This document shows positions 6,790-20,157 of a stretch of DNA of 64,000 bases, in pieces (the stretch's first letter is position 1; each line of letters begins with the position of its first letter). A program made the position numbers and the translations under genes. A model generated the notes under the pieces. It was not told the origin of the DNA. It saw only the letters and a program-made list of their open reading frames with translations, and did no database searches. The stretch comes from Candidatus Heimdallarchaeota archaeon. GTDB taxonomy: Archaea > Asgardarchaeota > Heimdallarchaeia > JABLTI01. Location of the stretch: contig JABCTZ010000022.1 of the NCBI GenBank assembly GCA_018238155.1, positions 1-64,000 of the forward strand, written 5' to 3'.

Positions 6790-8124
6790 ATGAGTGAAAA
6801 CATAGACTGCAACCTTAGTATTGGTGTAACAGATGCAGGAAGTCTTGGACAAGATATACAAGTTGGTATGTTATCAATCGAAAAAGAGAATGAAATCAGT
6901 TTATTGGTTAATAATCTTCTTTTTTCGGATCACATAATAAGTGTATGCCCTCCAACAAACTTAAATGATAATAAACCTGAAATGAAGAAAGAAATATCAC
7001 AAAAATATCTCTCAAAAATGATTAGAAACAGAGCAGCAAAAATAGCTCTTTTCCAAATTCAGCCTTTAGAACAATTTAAGCTGTTGCAAGAGATATCAGT
7101 TTTAGAAGGACAAAGATTGCATGAAATTGGAAAGGCAATTGATTCGTCAAATTATAATTATATTGGTAAATCGCTACAACTACGATATCAATATCCAAAG
7201 GCATACGTTGATACGTTAATAAAATCGGTTTTACAATATATGGCCTTAAATTGGTTCATAAAAGAAAATAACTGTGGTTATGCACAATTATTCAAAGAAA
7301 ACATTAACAATGAAAGAAAAATGGCTATGCATATCATTGTAAATGGTGGAGCACATAATAGTTCGTATCAAGATTTACTAAATGATAATTTGAAGAATTT
7401 GTGGACAGCAATAAAAACAAAGGAATCATCAAAATTTTACTGGAATTTGATGGTAGCAACTCATGGAATTCAAAATGCATGCAACTATTATCCAGTAGTA
7501 TCCAGTATTGATTATATGGCAAAGAAGATTAATTCAAACTTAGATAATTTCATCTATTCAAGTGATACCTTCAAAGAGGTAACTGCAGAAGAAATCATCG
7601 AACAAAAAGACCATGTAGGTAAATCGCTATTGGAAGTTTTACACGAATCATATCTGAATAGAACAGGGTCAACGTTCAGACCGCCAAAATTATGGCGAAT
7701 AGGCGACTTTAGCGACCTAGGAGAATATGAACTCACTTTACCATATCTCATGTTACAAAAATCGATCCAGGAGAAAAAAATAACTGCAAGAGAAGTAGAG
7801 GATAACGTAGAAAATATTCAACGATTTTACTCGTACAATAATCCACTAGAAAGAGATGCTTTTCTTGTTGGAAAGATAGAAAAGAAAGACAAAGAAAAAA
7901 TCAATGCTCTGAAAGAGGTTGGTATACAAGGTCTAACTATTATTGATGAAGACTTAGTAGAGGAATACCGACTACTATTGAACAATATTGCAAATTATGT
8001 GCAACAAGATGAATGTATCATTACAAATGAAGACCAAAAAACAGTGCTAGAGAAAATAGCTGCAATAGAGAAAAAAGATTTCAAAAAAATAACCAAAATA
8101 AAAATGCCAAGCAATATACTCTAA
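6790..8124 (+). CDS. Hypothetical protein (444 aa)
   Basis: Long ORF with GGAG/GAGG upstream; no family confidently recognised. Confidence 0.75.
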   Translation: MSENIDCNLSIGVTDAGSLGQDIQVGMLSIEKENEISLLVNNLLFSDHIISVCPPTNLNDNKPEMKKEISQKYLSKMIRNRAAKIALFQIQPLEQFKLLQEISVLEGQRLHEIGKAIDSSNYNYIGKSLQLRYQYPKAYVDTLIKSVLQYMALNWFIKENNCGYAQLFKENINNERKMAMHIIVNGGAHNSSYQDLLNDNLKNLWTAIKTKESSKFYWNLMVATHGIQNACNYYPVVSSIDYMAKKINSNLDNFIYSSDTFKEVTAEEIIEQKDHVGKSLLEVLHESYLNRTGSTFRPPKLWRIGDFSDLGEYELTLPYLMLQKSIQEKKITAREVEDNVENIQRFYSYNNPLERDAFLVGKIEKKDKEKINALKEVGIQGLTIIDEDLVEEYRLLLNNIANYVQQDECIITNEDQKTVLEKIAAIEKKDFKKITKIKMPSNIL

Positions 8125-8176
8125 ACAGAGGAAATGAGAAAGCTACAAGAACAAGTAGAGAAGTGATTCTTTGTAG

Positions 8177-8710
8177 CTATTTATTATTTTTATCAGTAAC
8201 CATTTCTAAAACTTTATTGCGAACTTCAGAGGAGCTAATTAGATCACCACTCTCGAATTTTGGCAAACGGCACAATTGAATGTTTAAATTGTTTTCTTTA
8301 ATGAAATTTTGAAGCGGCTGGTCATTTTTGACTTGATCGTAACCAAGGACAATATAATCAGGATTTATATCAAGAATAACATCGAAGTGCTTGCTCCCTT
8401 CATTACCTAACCGAGCAAAATCAACGACGCGAAGACCACTGAGAAGACGCAATCGCTCAAGTTCATGAAAAATGGGCTTATGACCTTTGATGCGCTCAAT
8501 AGAACTATCGCAAGCAAGAACAACAACAAGCTGACATTCAGGGCAATTGGCGGTCTTACGAGCTTCCAATAAGAAACGTAAATGAGCAGGATGAATAATA
8601 TCAAAGGTACCAAAAACTAATACTCGCTTCTGATTCTTTTGAAGAGGAGGTGGAGAAACAAAATACTGTCCTTCATCGAAAGAATCATTATCATCATTAC
8701 AAGTCGTCGT
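8177..8710 (-). CDS. ribL: FAD synthase (archaeal cytidylyltransferase-like); start probably non-canonical
   Basis: The frame extends upstream of the tracked TTG at 8569 and contains RVLVFGTFDIIHPAHLRFL. Also VVVLACD, ER, PDYIVLGYDQ and ISSS. Confidence 0.85.
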   Translation of the reverse strand, partial: TTTCNDDNDSFDEGQYFVSPPPLQKNQKRVLVFGTFDIIHPAHLRFLLEARKTANCPECQLVVVLACDSSIERIKGHKPIFHELERLRLLSGLRVVDFARLGNEGSKHFDVILDINPDYIVLGYDQVKNDQPLQNFIKENNLNIQLCRLPKFESGDLISSSEVRNKVLEMVTDKNNK

Positions 8711-8807
8711 TAGTACCTCCGTTATTAAATTTCATAACGATATCTAAAACAATATCACTTTTATTTCTATTGTTAGAAAATAGGGCAGAAAAATAAAAGA
8801 GAGAAGT

Positions 8808-8833
8808 GAAATGAGGCCGTAGGGGAATTTGAA
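8808..8833 (-). repeat. Degenerate copy 5 (most distal) of the tRNA-Lys 3' end
   Basis: gaaatgaggccgtaggggaatttgaa versus gaaaatgagggcgtagggggatttgaa at 14016. Confidence 0.75.
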
Positions 8834-9025
8834 GTAGGATAAATAAAAAAATAGAAAAAAAAATTGGTGAAAGGATTGGAAACGAGAAGAGTGACCTTCC
8901 TACACCAGACTTCTAAACCTTTATGAAGAAGTGTGTACCTAAACTTCTATTTTTATTCATAATTTTTGTTCTAAACAGATTTATTACCTAGAAAATAAAT
9001 AGTAAATGAAAAGAATTAGAGCTAA

Positions 9026-9325
9026 GTGGATAGTATGAAACAATCAATAGAAGAAATCAAAAGAAGGATTTTACCAACATTACAACAATACGATGTTGTG
9101 AAAGCATCAGTCTTTGGCTCTCAAGTTAGAGGTGAGGTAGGTGCAAAAAGTGATCTTGATCTATTAGTAGAGTTCTCAGGTAAGAAAAGTTTGTTCGATT
9201 TAGTTAATTTGAAATTTGCTTTAGAAGATTTACTACAATGCAATGTTGATGTTCTAACATACAATTCCATTCATCCATTAATTAAGGATACAATTCTCAG
9301 TGAAGAAGTGGTTATTTATGGTTAA
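9026..9325 (+). CDS. Minimal nucleotidyltransferase antitoxin (MntA-like)
   Basis: VFGSQVRGE...SDLDLLVEF...VDVLT. Confidence 0.93.
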   Translation: MDSMKQSIEEIKRRILPTLQQYDVVKASVFGSQVRGEVGAKSDLDLLVEFSGKKSLFDLVNLKFALEDLLQCNVDVLTYNSIHPLIKDTILSEEVVIYG

Positions 9326-9662
9326 ACAACCAAAAATTTTCATTCAACACATGCTTGATTCCATTAATCTAATTGAGAAATACCTCAAGGGAAAAAACAA
9401 AGAAGCATTTCTTTCCTCTGAACAACTACAAGATGCGGTTATTCGAAGGCTTGAGATCATCGGTGAAGCTGTGAAAAATCTTCCTGACTCTATCATCAAA
9501 GAGTACTCTGACTTACCATGGAAGCAGATCGCGGGCATGCGTGATATTCTAATACATCAATACTTCGGAGTTGACCTTGACCTTACTTGGGAAGTTATTC
9601 AAGTTGAGTTGCCCAGTTTAAAGGCAAAATTAGACCTTCTGATTAAATCTATTAAAGATTAA
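9318..9662 (+). CDS. HEPN RNase toxin (HepT/DUF86)
   Basis: DAVIRRLEIIGEA, PWKQIAGMRDILIHQYFGVD (R-x4-H). ATG at 9318 overlaps the MNT end. Confidence 0.93.
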   Translation: MVKQPKIFIQHMLDSINLIEKYLKGKNKEAFLSSEQLQDAVIRRLEIIGEAVKNLPDSIIKEYSDLPWKQIAGMRDILIHQYFGVDLDLTWEVIQVELPSLKAKLDLLIKSIKD

Positions 9663-9782
9663 AATAAGTCATAAGCCTAAACTATCATTCTTTTACCTAA
9701 AGAAGAAGTGAGCGCATGAGCTTTAATCTATAATTAATTTAGAAAACTAATTGATGAATTTCAGCATTCTTAAAAGGAAATA

Positions 9783-9815
9783 GAAAATGAGAGCGTAGGG
9801 GGATTTGAACCCCCG
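9783..9815 (-). repeat. Copy 4 of the tRNA-Lys 3' end
   Basis: gaaaatgagagcgtagggggatttgaacccccg: 33 nt, 1 mismatch. Confidence 0.92.
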
Positions 9816-9853
9816 CATTTGTATTTCTCTATCAATTTTCATTAATAGAATAT

Positions 9854-9881
9854 CACTCGAAATATTTAATAATTTCGAGTG
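9854..9881. promoter_or_regulatory. Inverted repeat around a TATA-like box; candidate TA autorepression operator
   Basis: CACTCGAAAT-atttaata-ATTTCGAGTG, 20 bp upstream of the antitoxin ATG. Confidence 0.6.
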
Positions 9882-9901
9882 GCACAATCATACTGAGAAC
9901 A

Positions 9902-10150
9902 ATGGCAACTATAAAAGAACACGTCATAAAAATAGGCTCAAAAGGAGAAATCTTTCCACCAAAAGAAATTAGAGAGATGCTTGGATTGGTGAAAGATCAA
10001 CAAATTATCTTAACAGTTCAAAATGATCTATTAATAATAAGGAAAGTATATACAGTGGAAGAGCTTTTAGCTAAACCAGCAAAAGTGAAGATAAGTATGC
10101 ATGCATGGAAGCAATTTAGAAAACAATTAGCAAAGGATGCAGAAAAATGA
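9902..10150 (+). CDS. AbrB/MazE-type antitoxin (VapB-like)
   Basis: KIGSKGEIFPPKEIREMLGL. Confidence 0.88.
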   Translation: MATIKEHVIKIGSKGEIFPPKEIREMLGLVKDQQIILTVQNDLLIIRKVYTVEELLAKPAKVKISMHAWKQFRKQLAKDAEK

Positions 10151-10650
10151 AGAAACTGCTTCTGGATACAACATACTTCCTGCCGTTGATAGGGGTTGAG
10201 ATCGAAGGAGTTAATTCAAATTTAGTTCAAGAAATACTAAATGCAGGGGAATATACAATTTCCTTATCGGAGATTTCATTATTTGAATTAGCAGCAAAAG
10301 GAGCAAAAATAGCCAGAAAGATGGAACTGACATACCAAGATGTCCTAAGAGGAATAGATACAATAAGACTTGATAAGGAGATTAGGATAGAGAGTTGGAC
10401 ACAGAGCCCAGCAATACTTGAAACGAGTTTTAACATACGTGCATTACATTCAGATTATGCAGATTGTATCATAGTGGCAACAGCAATATGTTCAAATGAC
10501 ATTCTAGCAACATACGATAAAACGTTAATAGAAAAAATAGCAAAAGATGAAGAAATAATCGCTGAGATAGAAAAAATAAATCCGGAATTCAGAATCTGGT
10601 TAGGGGATTTGAAGAAGAAAAGTTTAGGGATAGAAGAATTAAAGAAGTGA
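10147..10650 (+). CDS. PIN-domain toxin (VapC-like)
   Basis: LLDTTY, SLFEL, DYADCIIVATA, LATYD. ATGA overlap with the antitoxin. Confidence 0.92.
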   Translation: MKKLLLDTTYFLPLIGVEIEGVNSNLVQEILNAGEYTISLSEISLFELAAKGAKIARKMELTYQDVLRGIDTIRLDKEIRIESWTQSPAILETSFNIRALHSDYADCIIVATAICSNDILATYDKTLIEKIAKDEEIIAEIEKINPEFRIWLGDLKKKSLGIEELKK

Positions 10651-10684
10651 GAAAATGAGGGCATAGGGGGACATGAACCCCCGA
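10651..10684 (-). repeat. Copy 3 of the tRNA-Lys 3' end
   Basis: gaaaatgagggcatagggggacatgaacccccga: 34 nt, 3 mismatches. Begins immediately after the PIN gene stop. Confidence 0.9.
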
Positions 10685-10712
10685 GTAACTAATACACAAA
10701 ATAAATTATTCA

Positions 10713-11102
10713 TTAGGAAAGAAATTTATTCTCTTTAAGATAATTTTTCATTGTTATAATATAGTCTTCATCTACCTTGAGTTGTTCTTCAGCATCCGCT
10801 TTTGTTAAAACCAATCCCACACTATAATCACCCTCTAACCATCTATCATATGCTTCATTCAATGCTTTACCAAATCCCTTGTCTAACTCACCAGTTTTTA
10901 TAAAATGTTGTCCGAAAAAACTGATCGTCCCTTTATGGGAGGAAGCAGTGATATTCTTAGTTAAGAGAATGGCTTCAGTGATGACAAACATAGAATAATA
11001 ACATCTGGAAACACAGCTTGCATAATCTCCATCCTCAAGGACTAGCTTTGCAGTTCTAAGAAATCTTTCAGCTTTAGTGATGAAATCAGACAAATCAAAC
11101 AA
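10713..11102 (-). CDS. HEPN domain protein (UPF0332-like)
   Basis: KAERFLRTA...SRCYYSMF...SHKG...R..GDY. Probable start is the TTG at 11102, overlapping the MNT end. Confidence 0.88.
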   Translation of the reverse strand: MFDLSDFITKAERFLRTAKLVLEDGDYASCVSRCYYSMFVITEAILLTKNITASSHKGTISFFGQHFIKTGELDKGFGKALNEAYDRWLEGDYSVGLVLTKADAEEQLKVDEDYIITMKNYLKENKFLS

Positions 11103-11418
11103 GAGAGATACCTTCCTCTTTAACAGTGAGGATAAAGGGAGAATGATAATCGTTATAGAAGGATTCAGGAACAACGATAACAGAAACTAGCTCATCATTG
11201 TCCATAAGAATCTGCCATAAAATATCACTAAGACTATTGCGAACAGTAATTCGATTAAGGTCATCAGTGATAACAACAAGGAGATCAATATCAGAATTCT
11301 TGGTAGATTCACCACGAGCTTGGGAACCATATAATAAAATTTCTTTGACCTTTAAACCATAATTTTCAAGTAAGAAAATTTTAACCGGCTCAAGGATTTT
11401 TGCTAGATGGGCATCCAA
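11095..11418 (-). CDS. Minimal nucleotidyltransferase (MNT)
   Basis: LYGSQARGE...SDIDLLVV...VKEEGI. Confidence 0.92.
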   Translation of the reverse strand: MDAHLAKILEPVKIFLLENYGLKVKEILLYGSQARGESTKNSDIDLLVVITDDLNRITVRNSLSDILWQILMDNDELVSVIVVPESFYNDYHSPFILTVKEEGISLV

Positions 11419-11514
11419 GATATATCACTCCAACAACACTCAATAATAAATAATACACAATTACTGTTTATAAAAACATTCACAAAAAATACTAAGGAAA
11501 AAAGGAAAGAGAAT

Positions 11515-11553
11515 GAAAATGAGGGCGTAGGGGGATTTGAACCCCCGACCTTT
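11515..11553 (-). repeat. Copy 2 of the tRNA-Lys 3' end (perfect, 39 nt)
   Basis: Identical to 14016-14054. Confidence 0.96.
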
Positions 11554-11601
11554 TATTCATTCATAAAGTATTCTAAAAAGAAAATGGAAGAACTTTTTTA
11601 C

Positions 11602-12105
11602 CTATTTTTGAATCTTAAAAGTACTCTTCAATTTGGCGAAAGAGTTCAAAGTAGAAAAAATCAATAAACCTTCCTTTTTCATCAGAACAGTATCTAATCG
11701 TTTAAAGTGATAATCATCAACTAAAATAACTTCACAATTAAGATTAAGGGCAGTTGCAAGATGTAACGCGTCAGAAGCGTACATATTATAATCCTTTATT
11801 ATTCGTTTTGCTAATTGAAGGTTTTCAACAGTAACCTGCTCAAGTATAAGTTTCTTTTTATTTTCGAGCCTTTTAAGATCGGTGTCAATAAATAATTGTA
11901 ATTGTTCAGCTTCAACAGCGCTTAATTCGTCTTGATTCACCCGCTTCTTTATTCCGCGAGTAATTTCCAGATGACTCCAATGAGAGCTAATACATTGAAA
12001 TTGAGTGTGAGTGAGACAGGATTCAACTAAAGAACTACCAACTTCATTATAGAACAAGTTCCAGAGAGCAGAGCTCTCTAAGTAACAATCAATCTTCCTC
12101 ATCAT
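11602..12105 (-). CDS. PIN-domain toxin (VapC-like)
   Basis: YLESSAL...E.GS...LEI...SDALHLATA...VDD. Start trimmed to the ATG at 12105/12102. Confidence 0.88.
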   Translation of the reverse strand: MMRKIDCYLESSALWNLFYNEVGSSLVESCLTHTQFQCISSHWSHLEITRGIKKRVNQDELSAVEAEQLQLFIDTDLKRLENKKKLILEQVTVENLQLAKRIIKDYNMYASDALHLATALNLNCEVILVDDYHFKRLDTVLMKKEGLLIFSTLNSFAKLKSTFKIQK

Positions 12106-12325
12106 GAAGAGCCTCAAGACCTTGCAGCTTTTGTTGCTTTTTCGAAAAATAAGCTCGTACCTCGGATCGAGTTTTCCAGGGTAAGGATTTGAGCTTTTCC
12201 TCTTGCATGAGCTCATAAAGACCAGCTTTAAGAGCATCACTAATTGAAGAGTAGCGACCTTTCGCTATCAATGTTTCAAGGAATTTCTTCTCCTCATCAT
12301 TTAATCGGACTGAAGCAACCTCCAT
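12089..12325 (-). CDS. Ribbon-helix-helix antitoxin
   Basis: SVRLNDEEKKFLETLIAKGRYSSISDALKAGL. Confidence 0.88.
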   Translation of the reverse strand: MEVASVRLNDEEKKFLETLIAKGRYSSISDALKAGLYELMQEEKLKSLPWKTRSEVRAYFSKKQQKLQGLEALHDEED

Positions 12326-12436
12326 AGCATCACAACAAAAGAATAAACAGTACTGTATACTAAATACATAGCTGTAAACAAATAAATTCTTTTCGTTCGT
12401 TCTATATTTAATAAAGAAAAAATACTAAGAGAAATA

Positions 12437-12473
12437 GAAAATGAGTGCGTAGGGGGATTTGAACCCCCGACCT
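12437..12473 (-). repeat. Copy 1 of the tRNA-Lys 3' end
   Basis: gaaaatgagtgcgtagggggatttgaacccccgacct: 37 nt, 1 mismatch. Confidence 0.94.
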
Positions 12474-12917
12474 AAGATAAAAATTTGTGATAGTTGTTTT
12501 TTTTTTAAATTTAGATTATTAATCCCCATTCATCATCATAGAAAGATATTATTTTAAAAACTCATTTTAAATTGACAGTGAAGGACAGCTAAATTCAGGG
12601 GAAGTGAATAATGAAAGAAAGAATAGTAACGAAAGGAAACAGCCACTTGCCAAAAATAAAAAAAAGGATACAAGCTAATTATAAATCATACACATCCACA
12701 CCGTTTTCACTGTCATTTGCTGCTTTTGCACAGAGCTCTTTCACAGTTCTCATAGAAAAATATATGAGTTTGCTAGAGCTCCAATCATTCTTGTGGTGAA
12801 AGCTTTTTAATCATATTTAGTTTTAACCAAATTAAGTAGAGAAGATTATTATCAAAGTGGATTTACTTCACAAAAGTTTGAAAAACGGTATTTGTATATC
12901 GAGAGAAGGAATACAGG

Positions 12918-13886
12918 ATGAAAAAGCGAAGAAAAATAATAGAACTATTTTCCTTGTTTGTAATTCTCATATTACTTTTTGGGTTTCCAACTTACGTTCT
13001 CATTACTAATAATTCAGAAGACATCAAACATGAGACCAACAGATGGGCAATAATTGAGGATTACGATGGAAATCAGTTAGCAATTGACGCATTCAATAGT
13101 AGTATTTGGAATGAGTTACGAAAAGATTGGAAAGAGTTACGAAAGGATTCTGGAACGAATCTCAGTGCTCCAATGTTTATATTTGGACTTGTTGTATCTT
13201 ATGATAACTCGTGGCAGTTTCGATTTGAACCTTCAACAGTGTCTTCTACTATAGGGTATATTAAAGAACCCTCATATACAATTATCGAAATTGCAAATAA
13301 CTTGGAATGGCATTTATCTCAAAGGATTCCTATTGAAATAGAGTCTATTCGATTTTTTAATTTTCAAAATGCTGGAATGGTTATACTAATTATTGATGTG
13401 ATAGTATCCATTGTATCAATAATAACGTTCAGTTTGTATTTATTTTCAAAAAGAGAGAGAAGAAGATATAAAACGATAAAAGAAGCACTATTGGTTGCTA
13501 AGGAAACTCCAGAAGAAATCTCTTTTGCCTTGCTCTCACAAAAAGTAGATTTGAAACAAAAACAAATAGAGCACTTGATAAAAAAGAAAAATCTGAAAGA
13601 AGACCTGGGTTTACAAATCAACGATGACCGTATTCAATTTAAGGATTTGATTTATTCAAAAAGTATCTCCCAGATAGAAGAACAGTTGAGTAATTTCCTT
13701 CAAGTATCAATTAATCAACTTACACTTGAACACTATAGTAAGCTCTTTCAGTTTAAAAATGAGTTACAGGAAGCGTTAGCATATTTTGAAGAGTCTTTCA
13801 ATATAGAAAAACAAAAGCAAATTGAAACAAAAATCGAAGTGATAACGAATCTTCTGGAAAGTATCACATTAGATGATTTTAAATGA
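12918..13886 (+). CDS. Hypothetical two-TM membrane protein with an extracellular domain and a helical cytoplasmic domain
   Basis: Hydrophobic stretches at aa ~8-30 and ~153-176. Confidence 0.75.
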   Translation: MKKRRKIIELFSLFVILILLFGFPTYVLITNNSEDIKHETNRWAIIEDYDGNQLAIDAFNSSIWNELRKDWKELRKDSGTNLSAPMFIFGLVVSYDNSWQFRFEPSTVSSTIGYIKEPSYTIIEIANNLEWHLSQRIPIEIESIRFFNFQNAGMVILIIDVIVSIVSIITFSLYLFSKRERRRYKTIKEALLVAKETPEEISFALLSQKVDLKQKQIEHLIKKKNLKEDLGLQINDDRIQFKDLIYSKSISQIEEQLSNFLQVSINQLTLEHYSKLFQFKNELQEALAYFEESFNIEKQKQIETKIEVITNLLESITLDDFK

Positions 13887-14022
13887 AGAGTTGAATAAGC
13901 CACACACACGCACCATTCTACGATATGGAAAATGGAGTGTTCATAGTAGTAAATGGAGAGGACAGAAATGAGCCAATAAAAATGAAAAGATGGATGAATA
14001 AAGAAAAGAAAAAAGGAAAATG

Positions 14023-14158
14023 AGGGCGTAGGGGGATTTGAACCCCCGACCTTTATCCGATAAGAGAGTACTTCTCTTTCTCTAAGGATGTTTCCGATTG
14101 GAGATTTCTTCTCTTTTTCTTAAGAGTCCTCCGCTCTGCCTGTCTGAGCCATACGCCC
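14023..14158 (-). tRNA. tRNA-Lys(CTT) with two 31-nt introns (37/38: 14090-14120; 43/44: 14053-14083)
   Basis: Acceptor GGGCGTA/TACGCCC, D arm GCTC/GAGC, anticodon arm GAGGA-CT-CTT-A|A-TCCTT, variable loop AGGTC, T arm GGGGG-TTCAAAT-CCCCC. Both introns have BHB-like junctions. Confidence 0.92.
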
Positions 14159-14411
14159 GTGTTTTTTTCTGTATTTCTTTTGCTGTTTCTTTTATTTTTT
14201 AAATGTTCCCTTTGTTAGTATTTTTCTTTTTTTGTTTCCTTTTCTTCCATCTATCTCCTCATTTTTATTTAGTCTTCTCTCTCTTCACTATCTAATACAC
14301 TGAATTTTCCTTAATTTATTTAATAATAAGCTGTCAATTATTGACAAGATTAATACTTCCATTCCAAGAGTTTTTTTAAGTAAAAAACGAATAGTATTAC
14401 TGTGAGGATAT

Positions 14412-14603
14412 ATGACTGTAAAAGTTAAAGATTTGACAGTAGAAGAGCTACAAAAATTAATTTCTCAAACGATGAGTGATGTTGTAGAAGATTTATTGTA
14501 AGATACAGCTTGTCTGTCAAGCGAAGAATATGTACAATCAATAGAAGAAGCTAGAAAAGATTACAAGAGAGGCAAATTAACGAAACTAGAGGATTTGCCT
14601 TAA
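14412..14603 (+). pseudogene. Small antitoxin-like gene interrupted by an in-frame TAA (14499-14501); no cognate toxin follows
   Basis: MTVKVKDLTVEELQKLISQTMSDVVEDLL*DTACLSSEEYVQSIEEARKDYKRGKLTKLEDLP, with GAGG upstream. Confidence 0.6.
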
Positions 14604-14673
14604 CTTGCGAAATTGTATTGTAGTATGATTAGTTTAGTGGTTGTCCATTTATTTCCAGCGAGTAATGCGCTAT

Positions 14674-15171
14674 TTACCACAATTTAAACTTATGACCCAG
14701 AATTGTTGCGGCTTCTGAGTAATGCGCATTTGGCAGAAGATCTTTAGAGCCTTGTAAGTTTTCTAGCATTATCAATGCACCAACGAACTCTTGTTGTTTG
14801 TATAATTTTTCTTCTGTTTTCCACTTTTGTAATCGTTCCAGATGGTTTTTCATAATATCATCTGTTTTAGGTCCTGAGAAGCTTGTTAGAATAATTGAAC
14901 TGTTTCTTATTATTCTCTCCAAATCGAATTTTGTTATTAATTGAAATCTGTCCATAAACTCTCTTGAAAGTTTGATCATTTTTCCTGTAGAGGCTGTTAT
15001 TGTGTATGGTTTTGGTAGTAACTCTTTTTCTTTATTTTCAAAAGCAAACCCAGCTTTTGCTTGTATAAACTCGGTTTTCCCACCAGGGGGCATTTTAATA
15101 AACACCCACAGACCATATTTTTTCAGATATTTTGTTCCAATTTTGTATTCTTTCCATGGATTTTTTGACAT
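14674..15171 (-). CDS. Hypothetical protein
   Basis: 165-aa ORF; no motif recognised. Confidence 0.6.
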   Translation of the reverse strand: MSKNPWKEYKIGTKYLKKYGLWVFIKMPPGGKTEFIQAKAGFAFENKEKELLPKPYTITASTGKMIKLSREFMDRFQLITKFDLERIIRNSSIILTSFSGPKTDDIMKNHLERLQKWKTEEKLYKQQEFVGALIMLENLQGSKDLLPNAHYSEAATILGHKFKLW

Positions 15172-15507
15172 AATACATAGTAATTGCTTTCAGACTCATA
15201 TACCTTTTTCAAAATAGGTCGAACATTTTTTGAAATATAACACTAATTTTAACAATAGACTTTTTTTTGATAGGCAAATGATAGGTTTTATCAAAAATTT
15301 TTGCTTCATTCGTTTGCTCGAAAACTATTTATTAACTCAAAAACACTCTTACTTTATAGTTAAATCAATTAATTTATTGGTAAAATTAAAACTTAGGGAA
15401 GATAGTCAGTTATTGGGAGATTTTAGATTTTACTCTGAAATGCAACCGTACTAAATTCTTCTAGACAATTTTTAACCAATCTAAAAAAATAGCATAGGTT
15501 TACAAAC

Positions 15508-16515
15508 ATGAATTTAAAAGTAATGAAAAAGAATTATTTTATATTATTTTTAATTTTGTTGGTATTTTTTTCACCGCTCTTGCTTAATGACTATTCACAA
15601 GCAATTATAGACGATGGAAATACTACCACCGATCTTGAACCTACTGCTGCTCCACAATTTATCCTTGAAGAAGTGGGATAACTCGATGATTCTGGAAATC
15701 CAGAAGACGTTTTTATCTCAGGGAAGTATGCTTATGTTGCTTCGAGTTGGCAGGGATTAAAAATAATTGATATTAGTTGCATCAATAATCCTGTTGAGGT
15801 GGGTTAGTTTGTTGATGGTGGTTCTGCACGTAGTGTTTCCGTATCAGGAGGATATGCCTTTGTTGCGGATAGTACTGATGGTCTTGAAATCATAGACGTT
15901 AGCGATCCTTCAACACTTACGGAAGTGGGTCAGACAATTGATGGTGGGAATGCTTTAGACGTTGTTATTTCGGGTGATTTTGTATTTATTGCTGATGAAA
16001 CTGAAGGACTAAAGATCGTAGACATTAGTGATCCAAGCAATCCTGTTAAGGTAGGGCAAGTCGCAGACGGAGGTTCCGCTCAAGGAGTATATGTTACCGG
16101 GGATTATGCCTTTGTGGCAGATTATTCGGATGGTTTGGAAATCTTCAGAGCTGGATATAATGGAGATGACTTGACAGATTTTGAAGAAATTCATCAATAT
16201 TTCACAGATCCAAGTGATGACGATAGCGATGATGACAATTTGATAGATGGGGATGAAGTGTTTACTTATTTGACTGATCCTCTCGATGTTGATTCTGATT
16301 CGGATGGATTTTCCGATTATGAAGAGATACTCAATAACACCAATCCTACAGACCCAAATGATTATCCAGTTACACCTCCACCAGTTACCATTACTCTCCC
16401 GCTTGAAACAACAACTGTTACCGAATCTTCAGGTAAAGTACTTATTTCAGTACTTGGTATTTCATTTGCAGCACTATTTGCAGTGGTTGTTTTGTTCCGT
16501 AAAAAGACAACCTAA
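15508..16515 (+). pseudogene. LVIVD-repeat + Asp-rich Ca-binding repeat surface protein with C-terminal TM anchor, interrupted by an in-frame TAG (15805-15807)
   Basis: Signal peptide from ATG 15508/15523. The repeat reads PVEVG*F where sister repeats read VGQ. Same frame as the tracked ORF 15925-16515. Confidence 0.8.
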
Positions 16516-16989
16516 CTTTTCTTTTCTCCCTAGTAACTCTATACTAGGTATTTTCTCTCTTTTTTCTAATTTTACTTTAAACGAAATACTCAACCGGTTA
16601 GCACCCTAACATTTGGATTATAATTAATTAGCAGGAATTTTCCCAAAACGGAATCTTTTTTTAATAGAAAACTAAAAGCAATTTGATTGTGATTTGAATG
16701 AGTGATTTAGATAACATTGAACGAGAAATTGAAGGTTTACAAAGAACCATCTCTGAAGTTCAGAGAACTTTAGAATACTTATCAAGGAATTTAGAAAGTT
16801 ATCTTGAACGTATTGCACGTTCACTTGAGAAAATTGCTGACAAGTAATTTGAAAAGCAATTATTTTATTAAACAATGGCTTTTTTTTCATAAAAAATTCA
16901 GTTCATTTTTTCTATGTTTAAAAACAGAAAAAGATTGAATTGTTTTTTCTTTTCTTTTCAATGGATAAATACAAATGAATTAGAAAAAA

Positions 16990-17013
16990 TTCAACTGTCC
17001 TTTTGCAGTTGAA
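16990..17013 (-). terminator. Hairpin directly after the stop codon, followed by a T-tract on the minus strand
   Basis: TTCAACTG-n8-CAGTTGAA. Confidence 0.5.
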
Positions 17014-18093
17014 CTACGTTGTTTTTTTCACGGGAACACCATATGGTAAATAATCATCTATTAGTTTTGAAATTTCTTCGTGCTCCATGTCAGGTTTATA
17101 ATTAGACATTACTTGGTCCAAACCTCGATGAATTAGGCTTGTAGGATACTTACAAGCAATAAATCCAGCATATTTTCCGCGTTTATCTAGGATAAGCGAA
17201 TATTCTCCTAGGTCAATTGCCCGTGGAAAAACTTCTTCACCGACTAGCTCTGAAGCAAAAGTAGCAATAGCGGTTGCAACACCTGAGATAAGATGTTCAT
17301 TCATTTTATGAGGTGTTTCGAAGATTCCTTGGTAGAGATTAAGACCTATATCATTGTAGATATTAATAGAGATAACTTGTGAGGAACCATAAAGAGCGGT
17401 TTTTCCTCCAATAATCATACCTGCGGTAATCAAAGCTGTTCCAACACTAGTAGTTATTAATTCAGAGTGGAGAAGTACTTTCTGTAAATCTACAAATATA
17501 AATCTTAAAGCATAAACTAAGATACTAGCATAAAAAGCTACAATAACTCCAGCAATCAAGAAGTTAATACCTCTTTTATATTTCTTATTTACAATCGATC
17601 TCTGACGAATAAGATGCCATAAGAAGAATGTCCCTGCAAGAACTACACCACCAGCTAGACAAATAATCCAAATAATATTGGTTGAAGATTTTGCAACATC
17701 CAAAGTGCTATCATATTCTACCTTAAATACACCTTGAGAGAAAGTGATACCAAAAACTCCACCAAAAAGAAGAAAAACAATGTAAAGTGCAACCTGTTTT
17801 ATAGGTTTTAAGCCACTCAAAGAACTAGCGAAAAGAACACTGCAAATCATCGCAAAACCATTAGCAATTATACCTATTTGAACAAAAATTAAAGTCAAAC
17901 TATTATCTGAGGGATTACTAAAGATTATCTGTAAAATACCGGCAATGACCCAAATGGCAATAAATATTTCTAAGCTAAGAAAATAGTACACAGCACTTGA
18001 TTTCAAACTCCACTGTTTCACAATAATCGTTATTATTCCAAAGAGCATTATTACTAAAGAAATTGAACTGTAAATAAGGGAAAGAATGTTCAT
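17014..18093 (-). CDS. Seven-TM membrane protein with a C-terminal longin-like domain
   Basis: About 7 hydrophobic helices, then SINIYNDIGLNLY...LISGVATAIATFASELVG...IDLGEYSLIL. Confidence 0.7.
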   Translation of the reverse strand: MNILSLIYSSISLVIMLFGIITIIVKQWSLKSSAVYYFLSLEIFIAIWVIAGILQIIFSNPSDNSLTLIFVQIGIIANGFAMICSVLFASSLSGLKPIKQVALYIVFLLFGGVFGITFSQGVFKVEYDSTLDVAKSSTNIIWIICLAGGVVLAGTFFLWHLIRQRSIVNKKYKRGINFLIAGVIVAFYASILVYALRFIFVDLQKVLLHSELITTSVGTALITAGMIIGGKTALYGSSQVISINIYNDIGLNLYQGIFETPHKMNEHLISGVATAIATFASELVGEEVFPRAIDLGEYSLILDKRGKYAGFIACKYPTSLIHRGLDQVMSNYKPDMEHEEISKLIDDYLPYGVPVKKTT

Positions 18094-18149
18094 AAACAGT
18101 AATTATACTACCTAATTATATAATTTCCTTTCTCGGAAAATGACTGTTA

Positions 18150-18517
18150 AAAGAAAAAAAGAAGAGAGAAAAGACTCACAAAAGAGTCTTTAGAGATATA
18201 ATTTAAGAGCACCATTGTTGATAACTGAATGCGCAGCTGCTAATCGAGCAATGGGAACTCTGAGAAGAACAACTGACATAATCCAAACCAGTGCGATAAC
18301 AGAAGCCAATGGATTTAGGTTCTCCACCTTGCTCACCACAGATACCTATCTCGATATCATTTTTGCCTTTGTGGCCTTCTTCGACCATTATCTCCATTAA
18401 CTTACCAATGCCATTTTGTTCAATAGAAACAAAAGGATCAGCATCAAGGATGCCAAGATCTAAATAGAGATTGATGAATTTGCCAGCATCATCTCGAGAG
18501 AAGCCAAGACCCATTTG
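18150..18517 (-). pseudogene. ppdK 3'-end fragment 1 (2-nt frameshift near its end) plus the ppdK downstream hairpin
   Basis: QMGLGFSRDDAGKFI...GICGEQGGEPKSI...LDYVSCS. The flank aaagactcacaaaagagtcttta is also found at 38368-38390. Confidence 0.92.
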
Positions 18518-18570
18518 TGGAGGATTACAAAATTTAATATTAAAAAAGAAAAAACTAAAAAATACTGAAG

Positions 18571-20157
18571 CTATTTCCGTTTCTTATAAAAAATGAGTAC
18601 GACGAGTAGCATGACAAATATGAATGCTAGGAACCCGTATAAGAATTTATATTGAGCAGAGGAGGGTTGGAGGGGCTCAATAAATACCGTAACAAAACCT
18701 TCACTCATTACATACCTATTGTCAAAAGCATTTTGTTTAGGGAAATCAGTTGAACGTGTTGTGCCCGTGACATAACAATACCCATATTCTGTAACTGCAA
18801 TACCAGACCCTTCATCTGAAAGAATTCCGCCAAGATAGGTGCTCCAAAGTAGAAAACCGTCAGAAGAGTATTTAGTAACAAAAGCGTCGTACTCACCACT
18901 TTTGGAACTATCATAAGTGTTCTTCGTGGGAAAATTGGTGGAACAAGTCTCACCTGTCACATAGCAACTGCCATCACTGGTCGCAGCAATAGCAAAACCA
19001 CGATCAACACCATTCCCGCCAAGAAAAGTACTCCAGAGAAGAGAGCCATCAGTAGCAAACTTGACAACAAACGCATCACCCCATATATCAAGAGTATTAT
19101 TATAAGCATTCAGGGAGGGAAAATCGATTGAACCAGTAAAGCCTGTCACATAACAACTGCCATCCCTTACAACAGTAATACCACAAGCTTCATCCCACCA
19201 AACCCCGCCAAGATAGGTGCTCCAGAGAAGAGACCCTTGTGTAGAAAACTTAGTAATAAAGGCATCCAAATCACCATTTGATGTACTATCATAAGCGTTT
19301 TGTGTAGGAAAATCAGTTGAACCAGTAATACCCGCGACATAACAGATCCCATCCTCAGTAACAGCAATACCTTGCCCATGATCCACTCCACTGCCTCCAA
19401 GGTAGGTGCTCCAGAGAAGAGCACCAGCAGCAGAGAACTTGGTAACAAAGCCATCAAGAGACCCACCATTAAAAGTACTATCGTACGCATTCTTGGTGGT
19501 AGGAAAATTATTTGAATTAGTATATCCCGATACATAGCAACTACCATCGCCAGCAATAGCAATACCATACGGATCTTCATTACTACTCCCGCCAAGGTAA
19601 GTACTCCAGAGAAGTGAGCAATTTGATGAGAATTTAGCAACAAAAATATCTTCCTTACCGCTGAAGGTGCTATTAAAGGCATGCAGGGTGGGGAAATCGC
19701 AGGAATTAGTAAAACCTATGACATAACAACTGCCATCAGCAGCAACAGTAACATCATACCCATAATCCCAGTTATTCCCACCGAAGTAGGTACTCCACAG
19801 AAGTGAACCATTAGCAGCAAACTTCATCAGAAAGGCGTCTGTATCACCATTATAAGTGCTATCAAAAGCACTCTTAGTAGAGAAATCACTCGATTCAGTT
19901 AATCCTGTGACATAACAACTGCCATCATCAGTGACAGCAACACCTTTCCCACTATCCTTTGCACTGCCTCCAAGGAAAGTACTAAAATGTAACGTGAGAT
20001 TGGTTGCAGATACAGCAGCACTTGAAACGGGGAGATTAAAGCCGGTAAAAGGAAAGACCTGTCGAGGGATTGAAAAAAATAACACACTTATGAGAAGGGC
20101 AATGTTTAAACAATTTGCTACCAAACGCACTTTTTTTTCCAAGATGAATGACACCAA
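18571..20157 (-). CDS. SBBP-repeat beta-propeller surface protein with C-terminal TM anchor
   Basis: About 7 repeats of WSTYLGG...D.G.GIA...DGSCYVTG.T.S.DFP...A.D...DAFV.KF. Confidence 0.9.
   Translation of the reverse strand: MVSFILEKKVRLVANCLNIALLISVLFFSIPRQVFPFTGFNLPVSSAAVSATNLTLHFSTFLGGSAKDSGKGVAVTDDGSCYVTGLTESSDFSTKSAFDSTYNGDTDAFLMKFAANGSLLWSTYFGGNNWDYGYDVTVAADGSCYVIGFTNSCDFPTLHAFNSTFSGKEDIFVAKFSSNCSLLWSTYLGGSSNEDPYGIAIAGDGSCYVSGYTNSNNFPTTKNAYDSTFNGGSLDGFVTKFSAAGALLWSTYLGGSGVDHGQGIAVTEDGICYVAGITGSTDFPTQNAYDSTSNGDLDAFITKFSTQGSLLWSTYLGGVWWDEACGITVVRDGSCYVTGFTGSIDFPSLNAYNNTLDIWGDAFVVKFATDGSLLWSTFLGGNGVDRGFAIAATSDGSCYVTGETCSTNFPTKNTYDSSKSGEYDAFVTKYSSDGFLLWSTYLGGILSDEGSGIAVTEYGYCYVTGTTRSTDFPKQNAFDNRYVMSEGFVTVFIEPLQPSSAQYKFLYGFLAFIFVMLLVVLIFYKKRK

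Follow-up and report, generated by a model that had tools for sequence, protein, structure and literature searches.

Mobile DNA is known to accumulate in tandem at single chromosomal sites in both archaea and bacteria. Integrase-bearing elements have been described in rows at a single tRNA or tmRNA gene, both among the integrated mobile genetic elements of archaea (PMC6563490) and as the ssrA islands of Dehalococcoides (PMC3146451). These elements carry their own integrase and range from 2.6 kb to tens of kb; even the smallest of those known from Thaumarchaeota, at 2.6 kb, has an integrase gene. Integrons and attC arrays are also on record from metagenome-assembled genomes (MAGs) of Asgard archaea; among the annotated functions of their cassettes, toxin-antitoxin (TA) systems are the most frequent, and an integrase is seldom seen (Ghaly et al. 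2022, PMC9668308). The locus described here lies in the first 64 kb (the window) of a 120-kb contig from the MAG of a Candidatus Heimdallarchaeota archaeon (4.08 Mb, 33% G+C, 90.7% complete, 5.9% estimated contamination). It consists of a tRNA-Lys(CTT) gene followed by five short cassettes, four of them predicted TA modules, which are separated from one another by copies of the 3' end of that tRNA. Genomes are labelled G, contigs fetched for comparison L, and contigs of the window's own genome (G000) C.

The array resembles the tandem elements at tRNA genes in its tRNA 3' target, its direct repeats of partial tRNA sequence, the reuse of one site, the restoration of the tRNA at one end and the presence of empty sites in relatives. 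It differs from them in that its units measure 0.83 to 1.54 kb, contain one module each and lack an integrase. With integrons and clusters of attC sites lacking integrases (CALINs), it shares gene-sized cassettes that are arrayed without a recombinase, have their own recombination sites, are rich in TA modules and vary between strains in content and order. The recombination site, however, is a tRNA 3' end with its trailer rather than the imperfect palindrome of attC. The R'', L'', L' and R' boxes are absent, no GTTRRRY box was found on reading of the repeat sequence, and the only hairpin in the repeats is the 5-bp T stem. Furthermore, the array is without intI, attI and Pc, its genes lie in both orientations and its anchor is a functional tRNA gene. 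The initial annotation of this locus had likened it to an integron, and the likeness holds at the level of organisation because cassette boundaries recur elsewhere and no larger island is seen; it does not extend to membership, given the mixed orientations and the lack of intI and of an attC-type site. In its working the locus resembles both an integron array and tandem integration at a tRNA, yet it stands outside both classes, having neither intI and attC nor an integrase in each element.

Further parallels are found in systems that borrow their recombination enzymes. Integrative mobile elements exploiting Xer (IMEXs) use host Xer recombinases at dif. Cis-mobilisable elements (CIMEs) are integrase-less and are formed by accretion next to integrative and conjugative elements (PMC5704250). 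Like both of these, the present cassettes are DNA flanked by attachment (att) sites without a recombinase, would be expected to depend on an enzyme encoded elsewhere and can be stacked in tandem. However, CIMEs are decay products beside a helper and IMEXs target dif, whereas the present cassettes form a diverse pool of small units at a tRNA target and have no helper beside them. Elements of the SSV type with "suicidal" integrases occupy archaeal tRNA genes, with tRNA-derived repeats and with Int(N) and Int(C) halves at their ends (PMC7253208). Integration at an archaeal tRNA and the tRNA-derived repeats left behind are common to both, but the array holds no integrase-like coding sequence, and 0.9 kb is too small for one.

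Tandem insertions of casposons and transposons next to tRNA genes are also known (PMC6563490), and are comparable in being stacked at tRNA 3' ends. In contrast to the present cassettes, those elements have terminal inverted repeats, target duplications of fixed length and a Cas1 or transposase of their own, while the repeats here span 25-39 nt and are cassette-specific. Both readings were rejected because no terminal inverted repeats were found at the cassette ends. A resemblance to CRISPR arrays, likewise proposed initially, was not borne out, as the intervals are 0.83-1.54 kb of coding DNA rather than spacers of 25-50 nt, the repeats vary in length and are specific to cassettes, and no cas genes lie near the array. 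The only Cas1 of the genome is found at a CRISPR locus on contig C15 (cas1, C15:365909-366790). A CRISPR-like 36-nt repeat also occurs as pairs about 1 kb apart (C15:363577-364617 and C12:7830-9006), the pair on C15 being 1.3 kb from cas1. No TA cassette arrays at tRNAs were found in the literature on Heimdallarchaeum and Atabeyarchaeia mobile elements and the Asgard defensome, nor in full-text literature searches.

A tRNA-Lys gene followed by five cassettes

The tRNA-Lys(CTT) gene that anchors the array (14022-14158, minus strand) carries an intron in its anticodon loop and was therefore missed by ARAGORN at its default settings; it was recovered when introns were allowed and is matched by the Rfam tRNA family (RF00005, 14023-14158, minus strand, 45.5 bits). 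Its 3' end would serve as the chromosomal attachment site, attB. The segment that is repeated comprises the last 31 nt of the tRNA and an 8-nt trailer and lies at 14016-14054 (minus strand) in the intact gene, where it includes the variable loop, T arm, 3' acceptor strand and trailer (TCATTTTC). Five further copies are located downstream of the tRNA 3' end, all on the minus strand. These are found at 12437-12473 (37 nt, one mismatch), 11515-11553 (39 nt, no mismatches and thus the same sequence as at the intact tRNA), 10651-10684 (34 nt, three mismatches), 9783-9815 (33 nt, one mismatch) and 8809-8833 (25-26 nt, two mismatches), the most distal copy ending in the T loop. Start-to-start spacings from the tRNA outward are 1579, 922, 864, 868 and 976 bp, exactly as initially annotated, and the presence of the five copies was likewise confirmed. 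A 25-nt core of the repeat, with up to three mismatches allowed, matches the window six times compared with 0.00 expected from 100 shuffles.

Each of the five intervals between these copies holds a single module. Adjoining the tRNA, cassette 5 (12474-14015) encodes one 322-aa protein (12918-13886, plus strand) that has two hydrophobic or transmembrane segments by hydropathy and no match in Pfam, PADLOC or the Atlas. Cassette 4 (11554-12436, minus strand) contains a ribbon-helix-helix (RHH) antitoxin gene (12089-12325) and a PIN toxin gene (11602-12105, with the longest open reading frame (ORF) reaching 12240), matched by the ParD/RHH and PIN families of Pfam. Cassette 3 (10685-11514, minus strand) contains MNT (11095-11418) and HEPN (10713-11174, or 10713-11102 as called in L039) genes, of which the former also matches the PADLOC candidate PDC-S09. 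An AbrB/MazE-like antitoxin (9902-10150) and a PIN toxin (10147-10650) make up cassette 2 (9816-10650, plus strand), and an MNT (9026-9325) and a HepT (9300-9662) gene the distal cassette 1 (8834-9782, plus strand). All eight TA genes have Pfam matches, and only the AbrB/MazE-like antitoxin misses the curated cut-off (22.3 versus 24.7 bits). With their adjacent or overlapping small genes for a toxin (PIN, HEPN/HepT) and an antitoxin (AbrB/MazE, RHH, MNT), these four cassettes are predicted type II/VII TA modules. Three cassettes are oriented on the plus strand and two on the minus strand, and neither Pfam annotation nor a six-frame search for PF00589 revealed an integrase or integrase fragment inside the array or in the corresponding intervals of strain contigs. 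The initial description of one unit per interval, in mixed orientations and without an integrase, was therefore accurate. A second assembly from this organism (GCA_018238125.1, contig L039 of 7.8 kb) has the same cassette order at 100% identity. A 7-bp inverted repeat around the copy at 11515 looked compensatory in L035, but its offset differs there and it was taken as a chance occurrence in AT-rich DNA.

The site into which the cassettes were inserted is revealed by relatives that lack them. To the left of the array lies a conserved chromosomal flank (6790-8807) that includes a 444-aa protein (6790-8124, plus strand), a cytidylyltransferase-like protein (8177-8569, minus strand) and the stretch that natively lies downstream of the tRNA (8570-8807); Roadblock and translin-like genes also belong to this flank. 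The 444-aa protein is present in all of the other family genomes searched (11 of 11), and the order of its neighbours is kept wherever the contigs reach. In four more distant members of the genus (G007, G008, G002 and G003), whose flanking protein shares 61-69% amino acid identity with that of G000, the site is empty; only about 0.6 kb separates the tRNA-Lys from the cytidylyltransferase gene, towards which the 3' end of the tRNA points. The sequence left of the distal repeat in G000 is homologous to the native tRNA trailer of the empty-site relatives, and therefore 5.2 kb of cassettes now separate the tRNA body from the sequence that originally followed it. Iterative insertion at the tRNA 3' end with duplication of the target, as first proposed, is thus upheld by the empty sites and by the homology of the left flank to the native one. 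The empty-site relatives encode CCA and have the T loop TTCGAAT, whereas the G000 lineage has TTCAAAT and does not encode CCA. This difference would fit a scenario in which copies brought in by elements have replaced the 3' end of the tRNA.

Fixed boundaries and reassortment among strains

The 90%-identity cluster of the 444-aa protein has ten members on different contigs, and these contigs were compared together with others that carry cassette proteins, giving about a dozen contigs from strains with core genes approximately 90% identical. In this comparison across strains, of the kind advised in the initial annotation, cassette content and order vary; the same cassettes are found with the same boundaries but with other neighbours or in other orders, in at least seven different configurations. 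Both G000 and L039 have the order flank, MNT-HepT, AbrB-PIN, HEPN-MNT, PIN-RHH, membrane protein and tRNA, while in G001 (contig L020) and L041 the flank is followed by MNT-HepT and AbrB-PIN up to the contig end. AbrB-PIN adjoins the flank in L034 and is succeeded by a different cassette. In L035 the flank is followed by PIN-RHH, AbrB-PIN and a new PIN-MazE cassette, and in G009 (contig L019) by a PIN-RHH cassette whose toxin gene is mostly deleted. An FtsX-like cassette, more than 3 kb long in some strains, lies between the flank and MNT-HepT in L037 and L040, the latter continuing with AbrB-PIN. L050 joins MNT-HepT directly to PIN-RHH, L049 has AbrB-PIN, a chimeric MazE-like unit and the end of an MNT cassette directly against the tRNA, and L038 contains two other genes.

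The boundaries of these cassettes are constant. Those of AbrB-PIN are identical in five contexts (G000, L034, L035, L040 and L041), and also in L049 by blastn; those of MNT-HepT are kept in L020, L040, L041 and L050; and PIN-RHH has equal boundaries in L035 and L019, with part of the cassette present in L050. When cassettes from different contexts are aligned, homology starts and stops inside the repeats and the neighbouring sequences are unrelated. The genes themselves lie within approximately 30-450 nt of the boundaries on both sides. Between strains, DNA identity is 95-98% across the cassettes, non-coding parts included, compared with 87-92% for the adjacent core genes. The simplest reading of these comparisons is that cassettes have been exchanged between lineages after the divergence of the chromosomes.

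A further feature of the repeats is that the extent to which each reaches into the tRNA is set, at every position, by the cassette it adjoins. More specifically, it is 25-27 nt for MNT-HepT, ending in the T loop, 32-33 nt for AbrB-PIN and 38-39 nt for PIN-RHH. The short extent of the distal repeat recurs wherever MNT-HepT occurs (L020, L041, L040 and L036), so the distal copy, initially considered the most decayed, is mainly a short att site specific to this cassette rather than a product of decay. Such cassette-specific extents are what would be expected of a cassette-borne attP recombining with attB in a shared core, and the common core would therefore be at most about 26 nt, consisting of the 3' half of the T loop, the T stem, the acceptor strand and the trailer. 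Outside the trailer, at a distance of 15-25 nt, several cassettes share the motif AAAAAATACTAAG, which is present on the right end of cassette 3, and homology between the HEPN-MNT and FtsX-like cassettes extends over at least 70 nt at their right ends. An insertion of 31-32 nt in the T loop is seen in other strains in some copies of the tRNA-Lys 3' end (L035:4671-4739, L050:~1372-1416 and a loose end in run X2 at window position 9804). This insertion is intron-like, and therefore tRNA-Lys alleles of this kind exist or existed, and integration beside them still occurred.

The initial annotation had also inferred that insertion was polarised, but strict polarity is not supported by the strain comparison. 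PIN-RHH is distal to AbrB-PIN in L035, the FtsX-like cassette is distal to MNT-HepT in L037 and L040, and two neighbour pairs are reversed in runs X1 and X2, with contigs from four unrelated studies (PIN-RHH then HEPN-MNT; AbrB-PIN then MNT-HepT). Nor does divergence rise with distance, the mismatches to the tRNA being 1, 0, 3, 1 and 2 from the proximal to the distal copy. The orders observed could be obtained by insertion into any copy, by excision and re-entry, or by cycles of duplication and deletion.

Proposed recombination in trans and alternative explanations

The insertion site, the duplicated target, the fixed boundaries, the cassette-specific att extents, the reassortment and the cassettes being younger than the host flanks together tip the balance, by a modest degree, towards cassettes of about 0.9 kb that lack an integrase, possess a tRNA-like att site of their own and are integrated by site-specific recombination supplied in trans. 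A cassette would consist of one self-contained module, mostly a type II/VII TA pair with its own promoter, and of an att site mimicking the 3' end and trailer of tRNA-Lys(CTT). As a circular intermediate, or otherwise transferred, it would recombine either at the 3' end of the tRNA or at any copy already arrayed there, the catalyst most likely being a tyrosine recombinase not encoded by the cassette. Recombination would rebuild a working tRNA and leave a partial tRNA copy on the far side, and repeated events would build up the array. The TA content probably makes the cassettes hard to lose and may also serve as defence. Excision and integration in trans receive indirect support from the presence of the same cassettes in different positions and from their being younger than the flanks.

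Several observations weigh against this proposal. No recombinase is linked to the arrays, and a six-frame PF00589 search of the whole genome yields two genes, neither of them closer to the array than 57 kb. Collections of viral, species-genome and metagenome contigs, scanned for exact matches to the att-plus-trailer pattern, contained none and yielded no donor virus or plasmid. Some of the order permutations rest on Logan contigs (k=31), which are possibly chimeric across repeats of 33-39 nt, and permutation of order could also be obtained by homologous duplication or deletion between repeats. In public sequencing data, a single run contains at most 17% of the words sampled from 8600-14200 and every run is represented by Logan contigs, so a lack of circle or empty-site joints there carries no weight.

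The two PF00589 genes are nevertheless candidates for the enzyme. One (C8:49852-50907) encodes a putative Xer-like tyrosine recombinase of 351 aa, a gene type present in six genus genomes. The other, which lies on the window's own contig at a distance of 57 kb from the array (C19:71085-72659), encodes a 524-aa protein with a weak PF00589 match. Homologues of this protein are rare, numbering only four among 5.8 billion proteins, and a 73% orthologue is encoded on the corresponding G010 contig. No tRNA or att repeat was found near this gene or its genus homologues, and no att-like direct repeats flank it. At 1.4 kb from the 524-aa gene there is a paralogue of the membrane-protein gene of cassette 5 (C19:68692-69879, 82% DNA identity over the gene and 220 nt upstream of it), a proximity that is at most suggestive. 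A second paralogue of the membrane protein (53%) is found at C10:34093 beside a repeat of another family (type B, see below). Recombinase domains are absent from the genes flanking the tRNA, and neither serine (PF00239) nor HUH (PF01797) recombinases were found in the genome. The catalysing enzyme may be of the 351-aa or 524-aa type, may be encoded in the unassembled part of the genome or may be supplied by a virus or plasmid.

Alternatively, the intervals may be remnants of full-size integrative elements (viruses, plasmids or islands), each once with its own integrase, from which deletions spared the addictive TA pair, with differences between strains produced by homologous recombination. Integrase-bearing elements are well known to use the same tRNA site repeatedly, in tandem, both in archaea and in bacteria (PMC6563490, PMC3146451), and TA modules resist loss. 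Larger repeat-bounded islands do exist in this genome, at tRNA-Ala (2.9 and 10 kb) and tRNA-Pro (13 kb), the FtsX-like cassette exceeds 3 kb, and decay is seen in the G009 cassette that has lost most of its toxin gene. This history is nevertheless unlikely, as none of the roughly 12 strain contigs carries a long form of any cassette or has one inside a larger integrase-bearing island, the array contains no integrase fragments, and boundaries that are identical in every context would make five independent two-sided trimmings improbable. Because the cassettes are younger than the flanks, they have in any case moved as short units.

It is also conceivable, though improbable, that no dedicated recombinase acts today and that the 25-39-nt repeats merely provide portable homology, so that DNA uptake or cell fusion, followed by general homologous recombination, leads to the exchange of cassettes and to new orders. 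Every junction lies inside shared repeats, no linked recombinase was found, and the deletion-type variants L034, G009 and L050 are as expected from exchange between repeats. Such an explanation, however, leaves unaccounted for the choice of a tRNA 3' end with its trailer, the classic target of tyrosine integrases, as well as the cassette-specific tRNA extents and the recurrence of such arrays at three or more different tRNAs, and the insertion of a new cassette at a single repeat would be geometrically awkward. An assembly artefact, in which short repeats of a metagenome bin were collapsed or bridged to form a chimera, is scarcely credible. The estimated contamination of the MAG and the tendency of relatives' contigs to end at repeats would favour it, but two assemblies agree on the order over 7.8 kb, the repeat copies differ in single-nucleotide polymorphisms and length such that paths are unique, subsets of the order are seen in independent samples and assemblers (L020, L041 and L040), and repeats of up to 39 nt are below the k-mers of standard metagenome assemblers.

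Related arrays in the genome and their implications

A scan of the other tRNAs, advocated in the initial annotation, showed that the tRNA-Lys locus is not the only one of its kind, as G000 has at least three further tRNA-end arrays, at a tRNA-Met, on contig C13 and with repeats of tRNA-Ala type. The tRNA-Met gene (C21:101013-101149), which has a second intron inside its T loop, is followed by three copies of its 3' end; the array spans C21:101013-105019 (L006:3014-7020) and its intervals hold a PIN gene, a thioredoxin gene with an unknown gene and a methyltransferase gene, and a HicA-HicB pair. The three copies are without the T-loop intron, so the att copies match the intron-less allele. The two flanks of this array are not syntenic in relatives. 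On C13 (175517-180808; L047:5518-10808) there are five copies of another tRNA 3' end, ending in GGTTCAAATCCGGGATCGCCCACCA and a T-rich trailer, and the intervals contain paralogues of both PIN cassettes (PIN and AbrB-PIN). No intact tRNA was found within 5 kb of the C13 array. Its copy at 176088 has the same 22-nt trailer as a tRNA-Val(GAC) gene (C13:164894-165002), whose own 3' half differs.

The tRNA-Ala-type repeats bound HEPN/MNT genes as well as the 2.9- and 10-kb islands mentioned above. An island of about 10 kb at tRNA-Ala on C43 (L007:3020-13382) encodes TPR, NERD, HEAT and LAGLIDADG/HTH proteins, and in G000 also a PD-(D/E)XK protein, with no recognisable integrase. A similar island of about 10 kb in G005 (contig C84, L024:2163-8335) adjoins an inverted 5' half of tRNA-Lys, and the 3' half of a different tRNA lies 120 nt away.

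A second and different repeat family, type B, is specific to the genus. Its repeats measure about 90 nt, share a conserved core near GGTCTTCTAGACCTTCAAGAAGAAGCGAGGG and are present as 41 copies on low-G+C contigs (C33, positions 97-28704, and C28, C31, C35, C9, C5, C2 and C10); one copy lies in the window, in the leader of cassette 1 (8888-8965, nhmmer E=4.9e-5 genome-wide). The copies on C33 are 0.6-1.4 kb apart and bound single modules, among them PIN, DUF5615-DUF433, HEPN-MNT, GNAT, TumE and a RING protein; the closest paralogues of the HEPN-MNT cassette sit in type-B arrays. These repeats occur in all 10 of the genus genomes and in none of the 30 genomes searched outside the genus. They match no Rfam family, fold as single strands no better than shuffled sequences and were not called as attC. 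The type-B arrays may be the "archaeal integron" arrays of the literature, or something else.

Other features of the locus concern the tRNA and the sequence upstream of it. Within the intron of the tRNA-Lys gene, a 33-nt unit is duplicated in tandem (14056-14088 and 14093-14125, 79% alike); in run X4, one contig skips 67 nt of this region (14056-14125), and the match in G007 skips the corresponding part of the intron. Upstream of the tRNA, 515 nt without an ORF of at least 40 aa are followed by a 165-aa ORF and by LVIVD/TSP3 and SBBP beta-propeller proteins (14159-20157). The 165-aa ORF belongs to no known family, with no lead from Pfam, PADLOC or the Atlas, and 14159-20157 has no match in the fetched contigs of relatives except for weak LVIVD-repeat hits (L022, L035 and L038).

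Taken more broadly, it is possible, though the suggestion is tentative, that the genus has a chromosomal cassette platform whose origin is separate from that of bacterial integrons. Such a platform would draw on a pool of integrase-less mini-cassettes, mostly TA and defence modules, with att sites that mimic tRNAs at several tRNA genes or with type-B repeats, and these would be captured, excised and reshuffled by a host recombinase, for which the 524-aa protein is a candidate.

Integrons are regarded as the sole system dedicated to the stockpiling of single-gene cassettes. In an Asgard archaeon, an integron-like organisation appears to have been reached by another route, with att sites of tRNA type and no resident integrase. 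If the mobility of the cassettes is real, the minimal mobile unit would be a TA pair with approximately 40-70 nt of att sequence, and a recombinase with simple, portable sites would be worth seeking. The locus also offers a concrete place to ask whether TA modules persist by addiction or by independent mobility. Cassette mobility, if true, would give defence and TA genes a route from strain to strain among the prokaryotes that are the closest known relatives of eukaryotes.

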